Shown: positions 15,004-17,433 of the stretch, in pieces
How the letters are laid out: each line of letters begins with the position of its first letter
Position numbering within the stretch: the stretch's first letter is position 1
Made by a program: the position numbers and the translations under genes
Notes under the pieces: generated by a model
The model's input: the letters and a program-made list of their open reading frames with translations, nothing else
Database searches by the model: none
Told to the model about the DNA's origin: nothing
DNA from: Pseudomonadota bacterium
Lineage (GTDB): Bacteria; Myxococcota_A; Polyangia; Palsa-1104; JAEUJZ01
Length of the DNA stretch: 23,534 bases
Direction of reading: 5' to 3'
Assembly: GCA_035345715.1 (NCBI GenBank)
Contig: DAORCY010000081.1
Coordinates: 1 to 23,534 of the forward strand

Positions 15004-17433
15004 ATGCGGCTCACCAGCAGACTCCTCTCTCTGTGTGCCTTGATGTTCGCAACGTGCGAAGGCCCCGTCGGACCCATCGGTCCTTCCGGATCTCTGATTC
15101 CTAGCACGGACATGAATCCGGTGGCGTGCGATCCGAACGGCCCCGGTTTCAAAGCAGAGCTTGCGCTTTCGCCCCCGGCGCAGGGTTCCTATTACATGCC
15201 CGGTGAAGCGCCCAAGCTCACGCTGAAGCTCGGATCGGACTGCGGACGCCTCCTCGCACCGTTGGAGCTTGGGACCGCAAATCTGTACATCGTGGGTCCG
15301 CGCGGGGCACTCACGACCAAGAGTGCGAACCTGCTGCTCAATGCTGTCACCGATCGAACTGCCAAGGATCGCCAGCACCACTACATCAACCTAAAGAATC
15401 CGTCCTACGCAAACCCAAACGCACCAGGTCTGACGACGGAATCGGATGGATCGCTGACGTATCAGCTTGCCCCCATCGGAAGTGAAGCAGCGGGAACATA
15501 CACGGTTGCCCTGTGGGCCAAGACCGCAGATGAGCAGCAGCAGATATTCCCTCTGCTCGATTTTCAGATCGGCACAGCGACGGTGGAAACCTATGCATCG
15601 GGCGACCCGCAGTCTTCTAGCTGCGCCGACTGTCACAAGGGAACCGAGACCGGCAAGCTGTACATGCATCACATCGAGCCGGGATTTTCGCCGCTGGGAA
15701 ACTGGTCGCTGGATCTATTCCCCATCGCAAGCTGCAAAGTCTGTCACAACCAGGACGGATACAGTGCCAACACGACGGTGCGCAAAGTCCATGGTGTGCA
15801 CCGCGGTGAACATCAGGCAAACCCTGGCGTCGCCCATCCAGAATACGGCGTTCCCGCCGATACAACCCTGCCGCTGTTTACAAACGTCGGATTCCCATCG
15901 ATGCCTGATGCGGAAAAAGACTGTGCAAAGTGTCACAAAGACGATCGCTATCTGAAAAAGCCGTCGCGTCAGGCCTGCGGCGCTTGTCACGATGCACTGT
16001 TTTTTGACACCGGAACGCTGAGTCCAATCCGCACGTACACCGGCGTTTGTGCCGTCGATGCCGACTGCGCCAGCAAGAGCAGCCTGGCCAAGTGCAATCC
16101 GGCCTCACTGCTGTGCGAAACATCGACGCATCCCAAGCAAACAGACGATGCGCAGTGTACGACGTGCCACAGCGCGGACTCATCGGGCATTTCGCCGATT
16201 CCGGACAAACACGAAATCCTGACGCGCACCCATGTCCGCAAAGTCCAGCTGAGCGAAGTCACGGTATCCGGCGGATCGGGTCCGATGGCCGCCATGATGG
16301 TCGGCGATACATTCAAGCTCAGCTTCAAAGTCGCGGACGGAACAGGTGCCCCGATCACCGATCTGAAGACCAATTCTGCGCTGTCTGCCACGCTGCTGAT
16401 TGGTGGGCCGACAAACGATCGGCAGATGATTTATCCGTCGCTGAGCCTCAAGACGGTGGGAACGCTGACGTTTGATTCCGCGAGCAATGTGTATTCGTAC
16501 AGTCCGGCCACGACTTGGCCGGCGAACGCACAGACGCCACTGAACACGACTGGACTTACGCCGCGGGCCAATCCCGCCGGAACTTATTCCGCGTGGCTCT
16601 ACGTGGTGGAAACGACGACGTACAAAGGCACATCGATCCGCGATGTCGGCAGCGCACTGGTCGATTTCCGCGTCGGTGGATCACAAGCGATTCAGCCGCG
16701 CCATGTCATCAAGCGAGAGTCCTGCAATAGCTGCCACGTTGTCACGCAAGCGCACGGCGGTAGTCGTCGCGATGCGGAAGGCTGTTCGATCTGTCACACC
16801 GCTGGCGCTGTCGATCGCATCGTTGGGGGCCGCGGTCTGGCCTGCACGATGAGCAGCCAATGTCGTGGCAATGCCGCTGGTTGGGAAACTTGTCAGGACA
16901 CCAATGCCGACGGAAAAGCGGACACCTGTGTGATCTCGGTCGATCCGACGCCCGGACAGACGATTCTGTTTTCGGCGATGATTCACTCCACCCACTTCGC
17001 GCGACTGCTCGGTGGTTATGCGGAACGCAGTGGTCTTGTCAAACCAAACGCGCTTGTCTACATCGGCAACTCGAACACTGCGAATGACTTTTCGGAAATT
17101 CTGTTTCCGCAAGATGTTCGCAACTGCAAAAAATGCCACGGAGACTCCGGCGCAAGCTGCTCTGCAGCGGCCCCCTGTGGTATCGGACAGAGCTGCGTGT
17201 CCGGAAAGTGCCAAAACACATCCTATCTACAGGCCGGAACCGCGGCGTGTCTGGGCTGTCACGATACCTCTGCTGCAGCGGGACATGCGGCGCTTAATAC
17301 CTGGACCGATCCGATGGGCAAGCCGGTGGAAACCTGTTCGGTGTGTCACAGCGAAGGCGCGGAGTTTTCTGTCAGCAAAGTCCACAACATCGCAAATCCG
17401 TACAAGCCTCCTTACTTGCGCGAAAAGGAGTAG
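15004..17433 (+). CDS. decaheme c-type cytochrome, probable outer-surface (MtrC/OmcA-like domain layout), signal peptide/possible lipoprotein
   Basis: 809 aa with signal peptide MRLTSRLLSLCALMFATC. There are ten CxxCH motifs: CADCH, CKVCH, CAKCH, CGACH, CTTCH, CNSCH, CSICH, CKKCH, CLGCH and CSVCH. They are arranged as an N-terminal ~190-aa heme-free beta-rich domain, then 5 hemes, then a ~150-aa heme-free beta-rich domain (VTVSGGSGPMAAMMVGDTFKLSFKVADGTGAPITDLK...), then 5 hemes. Confidence 0.85.
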   Translation: MRLTSRLLSLCALMFATCEGPVGPIGPSGSLIPSTDMNPVACDPNGPGFKAELALSPPAQGSYYMPGEAPKLTLKLGSDCGRLLAPLELGTANLYIVGPRGALTTKSANLLLNAVTDRTAKDRQHHYINLKNPSYANPNAPGLTTESDGSLTYQLAPIGSEAAGTYTVALWAKTADEQQQIFPLLDFQIGTATVETYASGDPQSSSCADCHKGTETGKLYMHHIEPGFSPLGNWSLDLFPIASCKVCHNQDGYSANTTVRKVHGVHRGEHQANPGVAHPEYGVPADTTLPLFTNVGFPSMPDAEKDCAKCHKDDRYLKKPSRQACGACHDALFFDTGTLSPIRTYTGVCAVDADCASKSSLAKCNPASLLCETSTHPKQTDDAQCTTCHSADSSGISPIPDKHEILTRTHVRKVQLSEVTVSGGSGPMAAMMVGDTFKLSFKVADGTGAPITDLKTNSALSATLLIGGPTNDRQMIYPSLSLKTVGTLTFDSASNVYSYSPATTWPANAQTPLNTTGLTPRANPAGTYSAWLYVVETTTYKGTSIRDVGSALVDFRVGGSQAIQPRHVIKRESCNSCHVVTQAHGGSRRDAEGCSICHTAGAVDRIVGGRGLACTMSSQCRGNAAGWETCQDTNADGKADTCVISVDPTPGQTILFSAMIHSTHFARLLGGYAERSGLVKPNALVYIGNSNTANDFSEILFPQDVRNCKKCHGDSGASCSAAAPCGIGQSCVSGKCQNTSYLQAGTAACLGCHDTSAAAGHAALNTWTDPMGKPVETCSVCHSEGAEFSVSKVHNIANPYKPPYLREKE

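Follow-up and report, generated by a model that had tools for sequence, protein, structure and literature searches.

A predicted MtrC/OmcA-fold decahaem cytochrome encoded together with a porin-cytochrome conduit in Myxococcota

Teaching on extracellular electron transfer usually keeps two designs apart, the MtrCAB system of Shewanella and the porin-cytochrome complex (Pcc) and Omc cytochromes of Geobacter. Contig DAORCY010000081.1 of assembly GCA_035345715.1, which comprises 23,534 nucleotides and was analyzed at its full length (referred to as the window), raises the question of whether elements of both can be combined in a single operon. At positions 15004-17433 of its plus strand, it carries a gene for a ten-haem cytochrome that a sequence-only reading had likened to the Shewanella outer-membrane decahaem cytochromes MtrC, OmcA, and UndA, proposing an Mtr-like surface terminal reductase in an otherwise Geobacter-style cluster. 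The evidence presented here largely supports the view that the gene product belongs to the MtrC/OmcA/UndA/MtrF structural superfamily as a divergent member, in a clade found in Myxococcota.

The gene is a single unbroken frame with an ATG start that encodes 809 residues, and public assemblies hold an identical protein (P0001). A motif scan over the whole protein reports exactly ten CXXCH haem-binding motifs, grouped as five (residues 207, 244, 307, 325, and 385) and five (residues 574, 594, 708, 749, and 778), and no CX3-4CH site beyond these. From the protein's own content in Cys (4.4%) and His (3.3%), about 0.05 CXXCH would be expected by chance in 809 residues; ten are far beyond it. Exactly ten motifs are also found in all of the 69 aligned relatives. 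The two clusters of five described by the sequence-only reading are confirmed. The heme-free segments of 150-190 residues that it placed ahead of each cluster are equally present, at residues 19-206 (188 residues) and 390-573 (184 residues). Its description of these segments as rich in Thr, Ser, and Gly holds weakly for the second, in which the three residues amount to 32.6%, and fails for the first (26.6%, as compared with 26.9% in the whole protein). BLASTP comparison of the two halves of the protein with each other returns a weak signal (E 0.002-0.013), which would be compatible with an old internal duplication and is no evidence of one by itself.

Profile searches indicate to which family this protein is related. 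Pfam PF22113, which covers domains II/IV of MtrC/MtrF-like proteins, matches two stretches (106.2 bits for a gathering cut-off of 30, E 1.8e-30), the best of which (residues 566-795) spans the profile from end to end (positions 1-176 of 176). NCBIfam TIGR03507, the OmcA/MtrC family decahaem cytochrome model, is matched with an E-value of 3.3e-54. A single-sequence search of the PDB sequences reports a hit with MtrF (3PMQ) at 4e-11, and the family profile built from the 69 relatives returns MtrF (3e-25), OmcA (5e-16), UndA (1e-9), and MtrC (3e-4). In the profile alignments, haems 3-10 of the window protein pair in register with the MtrF motifs of the same number.

The structure was modelled with AlphaFold2 on the 69-sequence alignment, the model containing no haems. 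It has a predicted local distance difference test score (pLDDT) of 89.8 and a predicted template modelling score (pTM) of 0.86, and is disordered only at residues 1-46. Beta strands are found at residues 49-189 and 415-557, both with pLDDT above 90, and behind each beta domain comes a haem domain that is mostly helical and rich in loops. The heme-free regions are therefore beta-rich, as had been proposed, and are folded domains rather than disordered linkers. Four domains can be delineated on the plus strand: the heme-free beta domain I (about residues 47-200, positions 15142-15603), the pentahaem domain II (about residues 201-410, positions 15604-16233) with the first five motifs and one Cys-rich insert, the heme-free and cysteine-free beta domain III (about residues 411-560, positions 16234-16683; DSSP strands at residues 415-557), and the pentahaem domain IV (about residues 561-809, positions 16684-17430) with the last five motifs and two Cys-rich inserts. 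A Foldseek search against the PDB returns MtrC, OmcA, or UndA for all of its best 13 matches (E 1e-15 to 1e-18). The longest superpositions (487-499 residues) are obtained with MtrF and MtrC, the backbone superposing over all four domains, while only 269-277 residues of OmcA or UndA superpose in one rigid body. The Shewanella clades possess four domains, two multihaem ones flanked by two Greek-key beta-barrel domains (PMC4486940), and it can be stated with very high confidence that the window protein shares this beta, pentahaem, beta, pentahaem fold. The four-domain layout proposed from the letters of the DNA is thus borne out by the two PF22113 stretches, the family profile, the model, and the structural matches. 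Like Shewanella MtrF and MtrC (4LM8, 6QYC), the protein is a predicted lipoprotein with a 5 + 5 arrangement of motifs, although its identity to them is only 15-20%. The wider superfamily is large: clustered at 50% identity, it numbers 3,760 representatives at a threshold of E ≤1e-3 and 506 at one of E ≤1e-30. Only about ten representatives match over the full length in a single stretch.

The haem domains also exhibit features that MtrF and MtrC do not possess. Cys-rich inserts of about 60 residues occur at haems 4/5 and 7/8, and a third insert is located at haems 8/9. Together they hold twelve conserved extra cysteines, or six pairs, namely C349, C355, C364, and C371 between haems 4 and 5 in domain II, and C614, C620, C630, and C642 between haems 7 and 8 and C719, C725, C731, and C736 between haems 8 and 9 in domain IV. 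Eleven of the twelve are invariant in the family, and C620 is conserved to at least 90%. In the AlphaFold2 model, these cysteines sit in beta-hairpin inserts, which explain why the spacing of haems 4-5 and 7-8 is longer than in the MtrF alignment. Eleven His residues outside the motifs are invariant (H223, 263, 266, 278, 376, 403, 584, 661, 664, 761, and 794), which would be enough for bis-His ligation of all ten haems. With its ten haems, the window protein differs from UndA, which has an eleventh.

The N-terminus suggests how the protein is anchored. A signal peptide with its lipobox (residues 1-18, ending in MFATC; positions 15004-15057, plus strand) designates Cys18 as the predicted lipidated residue. 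The protein's own lipobox, FATC, is atypical, with an unusual Thr at position -1, and confidence in the lipoprotein prediction rests on the family: Cys18 is conserved in at least 90% of its members, and relatives display canonical lipoboxes (LAAC, LAGC, VACE) at the same place. Right after the lipobox Cys comes a short collagen-like Gly-X-Y tether (EGPVGPIGPSGSL; positions 15058-15096, plus strand), the run of which amounts to four triplets (GPVGPIGPSGSL) and belongs to the segment that is disordered in the monomer model. The 69 relatives have between 0 and 22 uninterrupted Gly-X-Y triplets, with a median of 11 and at least eight triplets in 55 of them; P0077, with 22, is a long-tether relative. 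Pro occupies 40% of the X positions in these runs, many of which match Pfam PF01391. Shewanella MtrF, OmcA, and UndA have a short comparable Gly-X-Y-like stretch (CGGSDGDDGSPGEPG...) behind the lipid cysteine. A full-text literature search found no paper linking collagen-like sequences with outer-membrane multihaem cytochromes. The Gly-X-Y run could serve as a stalk that trimerises or spaces a surface cytochrome, and this conserved and unreported tether may set how far the haems extend from the cell.

The decahaem gene heads a tightly packed six-gene operon, in which the gaps and overlaps between the downstream genes range from -11 to +62 nt. As the gene upstream, encoding an EF-hand protein (positions 14190-14753), lies divergently on the minus strand, the decahaem gene is the first of its transcription unit. 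The five genes that follow are all on the plus strand. The ATG of the second gene (positions 17439-19064) begins 6 nt past the decahaem stop codon. Its product is a second outer-membrane lipoprotein multihaem cytochrome of 542 residues, with a lipobox LIGC and 13 motifs (11 CXXCH and two CX4CH), that shares with Geobacter the CX4CH/CXXCH domain described by TIGR01904 (GSu_C4xC__C2xCH; 76 bits for a cut-off of 27). Its counterparts in three related loci (L002, L003, and L006) comprise about 370 residues and ten CXXCH. The sequence-only reading had taken the porin-like gene to be adjacent to the decahaem gene, which is not the case: this second cytochrome gene lies between the two, and the porin is one gene further on.

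The third gene (positions 19054-20316) encodes a porin-like outer-membrane beta-barrel of 420 residues with a signal peptide and about 22 strands. Its AlphaFold model is all-beta (pLDDT 87.2), and among solved folds, Foldseek places it nearest to the usher barrels of FimD/PapC and to Occ porins. It does not return any Pfam family, MtrB_PioB included. Assignment as an MtrB-type barrel was considered and rejected on the grounds of this missing MtrB_PioB match and of the absence of MtrB from the best 50 Foldseek matches, which are usher and Occ barrels. MtrB itself has been likened to FimD as a wide barrel by Edwards et al. (PMC7198977). The fourth gene (positions 20313-21374) overlaps the porin stop by 4 nt and encodes a periplasmic cytochrome of 353 residues with a signal peptide and 13 CXXCH, which probably threads the barrel; hundreds of homologues of about 350 residues exist in Myxococcota/Polyangia. 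The product of the fifth gene (positions 21437-21790) is a class I cytochrome c with a single haem and a signal peptide, matched by Pfam Cytochrom_C and Cytochrome_CBB3. Its start was placed at the internal Met45, just ahead of the signal peptide, and it matches an open reading frame (ORF) of 125 residues in L001, a metagenome-assembled genome (MAG) of an uncultured Myxococcales bacterium that is the closest genomic relative of the window. Lastly, the sixth gene (positions 21836-22438) encodes a membrane-anchored tetrahaem quinol dehydrogenase of the NrfH/NapC/CymA type with three CXXCH and one CX4CH (Pfam Cytochrom_NNT 8.7e-10; TIGR03153 1.7e-12, which is under its cut-off). The CX4CH (CVSKDCH) is its fourth haem site, and this spacing is kept in L001, L002, and L003.

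The genes downstream of the decahaem cytochrome correspond to the definition of a Pcc gene cluster given by Shi et al. (2014), with barrel and 13-haem genes that overlap by 4 nt and a TIGR01904 lipoprotein cytochrome upstream. A porin-like gene stands beside a periplasmic multihaem cytochrome gene, an arrangement shared with the Geobacter Pcc clusters (OmbB-OmaB-OmcB) and with the two-gene clusters of Anaeromyxobacter (Shi et al. 2014, PMC4245776). The periplasmic partner, with its 353 residues and 13 haems, fits the Anaeromyxobacter type (338-344 residues, 12-14 haems; PMC4245776). Its tie to the Anaeromyxobacter Pcc rests only on size, haem count, and taxon: no named Anaeromyxobacter dehalogenans protein appears among the best 120 homologues listed, which are unnamed or called 'cytochrome c3 family' and originate from metagenome-assembled Polyangia/Myxococcales. 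Shi et al. described the Anaeromyxobacter pcc clusters as comprising only the porin and the periplasmic cytochrome, without outer-membrane cytochromes (PMC4245776), whereas two lipoprotein cytochromes are encoded immediately upstream in the operon of the window. The MtrC that is associated with MtrAB differs from the present protein by its partners, a barrel of 26 strands (MtrB) and a ten-haem cytochrome (MtrA), as compared with a non-MtrB barrel of about 22 strands and a 13-haem cytochrome here. The notion of an Mtr-like head on a Geobacter-style cluster is thus upheld by the TIGR01904 neighbour, the barrel devoid of an MtrB_PioB match, and the 13-haem partner.

This arrangement is not confined to the window. 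L001 displays the same gene order with 76-81% DNA identity, and more distant homologues, at only about 45-50% identity, are present in MAGs of Polyangia, Myxococcales, and 'delta proteobacterium'. The MtrC-like gene, the second cytochrome, the barrel of about 420 residues, the 13-haem cytochrome of about 350 residues, and a NapC/NirT-type gene recur in L002, L003, L004, L006/L008, L009, and L010. The gene order in these clusters sometimes differs from that of the window, the place of the MtrC-like gene relative to the porin being variable in L004 and L009. Given its shorter, ten-motif counterparts in L002, L003, and L006, the second lipoprotein cytochrome is a far more variable subunit than are the barrel, the 13-haem cytochrome, and the MtrC-like protein. 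Rieske iron-sulfur protein genes are found beside the homologous clusters of two distant relatives, L008 (16379-16885) and L009 (18056-18496), together with PetC-like and extra monohaem cytochrome c genes, and hint at a link with a bc-type complex. A universal association of the MtrC-like gene with the conduit was rejected, given that the cultured Anaeromyxobacter oryzae possesses an orphan homologue; the association is therefore not obligatory. This homologue (P0055; locus L007, AP025591.1, 2469762-2492251) is 50% identical, contains 14 collagen triplets, and has no porin or multihaem neighbours, while genes for a cytochrome c552 (NrfA-type) and a NapC/NirT-type protein are located 7-10 kb from it.

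The operon most likely encodes a complete electron path that links the quinol pool with the cell surface, and we consider the decahaem protein to be the surface terminal reductase of this conduit with a probability of roughly 0.7. In this scheme, the NrfH/NapC-type quinol dehydrogenase would take electrons from the quinol pool in the inner membrane and pass them via periplasmic cytochromes, including the monohaem cytochrome c, to the 13-haem wire. This wire probably passes through the interior of the barrel with its roughly 22 strands, so that electrons would exit at the cell surface; Shi et al. proposed that the 12-14-haem Anaeromyxobacter Pcc cytochromes of 338-344 residues could span the membrane inside the porin (PMC4245776). 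The decahaem protein would then receive electrons directly or via the second, Geobacter OmcB-type, lipoprotein cytochrome. In the Shewanella complex, the transfer occurs from haem A10 of MtrA to haem C5 of MtrC, 8 Å apart at the barrel mouth (PMC7198977). The ten bis-His haems would spread the electrons to solvent-exposed terminal haems, from which they may pass to acceptors that are insoluble or macromolecular, for instance Fe(III)/Mn(IV) oxides and humic matter. The motif count, the fold, the relationship with the Shewanella proteins, the lipobox, the barrel fold of the neighbour, and the layout and conservation of the operon are shown; throughout this scheme, we infer the direction of electron flow, the acceptors, the subunit that docks to the barrel, the surface exposure, and the haem packing.

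Several observations weigh against this picture. The TIGR03507 score of 184.5 bits is below the curated cut-off of 209.3 bits, and over its full length, the protein reaches a TM-score of only about 0.4-0.5 with MtrC/OmcA. The staggered-cross packing of the haems is suggested by the backbone only, and the exposure of the protein at the surface is a predicted one. The decahaem protein contains no hematite-binding [ST]-P-[ST] motif. It is devoid of the domain III CX8-15C disulfide, with no Cys at residues 390-573, and the matching region lacks Cys in 63 of the 69 relatives. All four Shewanella clades conserve this disulfide, which gates the binding of flavin mononucleotide (Edwards et al., PMC4486940). 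In OmcA (4LMH) and UndA (3UCP), it is accompanied by a CX2-3C motif in domain I (PMC4486940), a domain in which the window protein has the nearly invariant pair C42/C80. With the disulfide missing, a Shewanella-style oxygen-sensitive, redox-gated flavin switch is not predicted for the Myxococcota clade. Falling short of the TIGR03507 cut-off, lacking this disulfide, and carrying six extra conserved cysteine pairs and a collagen-like tether, the window protein is a divergent relative and not a member of the Shewanella clade. Furthermore, no porin gene lies near the A. oryzae homologue, and electron uptake would also be compatible with the monohaem cytochrome c encoded in the operon and with the Rieske genes near L008 and L009.

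The position of the decahaem protein within the conduit is the point at which another explanation fares best. The Geobacter-type lipoprotein encoded at 17439-19064 might cap the porin-cytochrome complex, the decahaem protein acting as an OmcA-like peripheral partner that only gathers electrons from this complex's cap and enlarges the area available for reaction. Two lipoprotein cytochromes are indeed encoded, and the outer-membrane subunit of the Geobacter Pcc is an OmcB-type lipoprotein (PMC4245776); the shifting place of the MtrC-like gene with respect to the porin (L004 and L009 as compared with the window) and its orphan status in A. oryzae point the same way. However, the longest superpositions, over 487-499 residues, are with MtrF and MtrC, which represent clades forming tight complexes, and the best sequence match is also MtrF. 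We retain this peripheral role as a tentative possibility, and the surface terminal reductase as the preferred one.

The direction of the flow calls for a similar assessment. The same conduit could operate in reverse, taking up electrons from Fe(II), reduced minerals, reduced humics, or cathodes and passing them through the 13-haem and monohaem cytochromes to an oxidase or the quinone pool. Multihaem chains and CymA/NrfH-type enzymes are reversible, the operon includes a monohaem cytochrome c of class I, a type that supplies cbb3-type oxidases with electrons, and Rieske/PetC genes and extra monohaem cytochromes adjoin related clusters. Nevertheless, the known oxidising conduits MtoAB and PioAB typically lack an MtrC-type surface cytochrome (PMC4245776; bioRxiv 10.1101/2022.03.26.485925), and Anaeromyxobacter, the Myxococcota member for which extracellular electron transfer has been demonstrated experimentally, is a metal reducer; we regard electron uptake as improbable. 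A last explanation, in which the protein is an outer-membrane lipoprotein facing the periplasm or a soluble periplasmic protein that stores or relays electrons, would accord with the default orientation of diderm lipoproteins and with the absence of secretion genes from the window, the surface display of Shewanella MtrC/OmcA requiring a type II secretion system (PMC4486940), but is very improbable given that all characterised proteins of the MtrC/OmcA fold are extracellular (PMC4486940), that the collagen-like tether of the family resembles bacterial surface proteins such as BclA, and that the operon already provides two periplasmic cytochromes.

Returning to the proposed surface terminal reductase, how far it departs from what has been described can be appreciated from other phyla. 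The protein class is already known, being recognised by Pfam and by some automated annotations. OmcA/MtrC-family proteins in Desulfuromonadia were reported in 2025 together with true MtrAB (PMC12133095); among them, the MtrC of Desulfuromonas acetexigens is a divergent MtrC fold from the former 'Deltaproteobacteria' that, unlike the window protein, co-occurs with true MtrAB (PMC12133095). Divergent MtrC-like proteins of Acidobacteriota/Verrucomicrobiota from peat are located in porin-cytochrome clusters, as here, but in other phyla (bioRxiv 10.64898/2026.05.27.727921, 2026 preprint). A metagenomic survey with hidden Markov models (HMM) lists MtrC matches from Myxococcota, the cluster and protein features of which it does not describe (bioRxiv 10.1101/2022.03.26.485925), and a paper on the phylogeny of mtrCAB does not mention myxobacteria. 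New here are the pairing with a non-Mtr conduit, the absence of the disulfide, the additional Cys-rich inserts, and the collagen-like tether.

An MtrC-fold head, a Pcc-style barrel, a 13-haem cytochrome, a Geobacter-type lipoprotein, and a dedicated quinol dehydrogenase thus stand in one operon that recurs in environmental Myxococcota/Polyangia genomes, and it appears that the 'head' at the surface and the trans-membrane 'wire' can be exchanged as modules. Where HMM surveys take an 'MtrC' match as the sign of a Shewanella-like pathway, such organisms may be misassigned, and the Anaeromyxobacter-type pcc clusters said to be free of outer-membrane cytochromes may have overlooked partners. More speculatively, and we regard this as rather doubtful, the Myxococcota clade might represent a distinct type of surface cytochrome, with an MtrC-fold head on a Pcc-like conduit, a lost flavin-gating disulfide, and, in most members, a trimerising collagen-like stalk that holds a 30-haem 'bouquet' off the outer membrane. 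If we assume such a triple helix, a stalk of 22 triplets would measure about 19 nm, and the window protein with its four triplets would be a short-tether derivative.

Upstream of the operon, an apparently empty gap of 1 kb was rejected, as it harbors the conserved EF-hand gene on the minus strand, separated from the divergent decahaem gene by about 250 bp of intergenic DNA. The EF-hand protein comprises 187 residues with four EF-hand motifs (Pfam EF-hand_1 1.3e-22), and its gene, hidden in a longer spurious ORF, was detected only via tblastx conservation with L001. That minus-strand ORF of 320 residues (positions 14190-15152) extends the EF-hand gene too far and runs across the start of the cytochrome gene. 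Promoter and terminator scans of positions 13900-15100 report weak consensus matches only, and no Rfam family matches anywhere in the window. At the other end of the window, a Ser/Thr protein kinase-like gene (positions 1016-2230), a gene for a secreted trypsin-like protease (positions 3536-4510), and a TonB-dependent receptor-like barrel gene (positions 4597-6717; score just under the Pfam cut-off), all three on the minus strand, have no evident link to the cytochrome operon. The last one is kept at the end of the sequenced region of L001, which does not reach the first two. Between these and the operon, two plus-strand genes (positions 7258-8970 and 9204-10874) encode paralogous lipoproteins of about 560 residues with 66-70% mutual DNA identity, both kept in L001; they belong to no Pfam family, and their only hit is a 50-residue match to the Bdellovibrio MIDAS-family adhesin model NF052240. 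Finally, the gene at positions 11048-13984 of the plus strand encodes a protein of 978 residues with domains of the eukaryote-type Major Vault Protein (MVP_shoulder 2.6e-18; Vault_3 and Vault_4, both exceeding the Pfam cut-off). Its conservation in L001 reaches 89% identity, and the presence of a bacterial vault homologue just upstream of a cytochrome operon is unusual.

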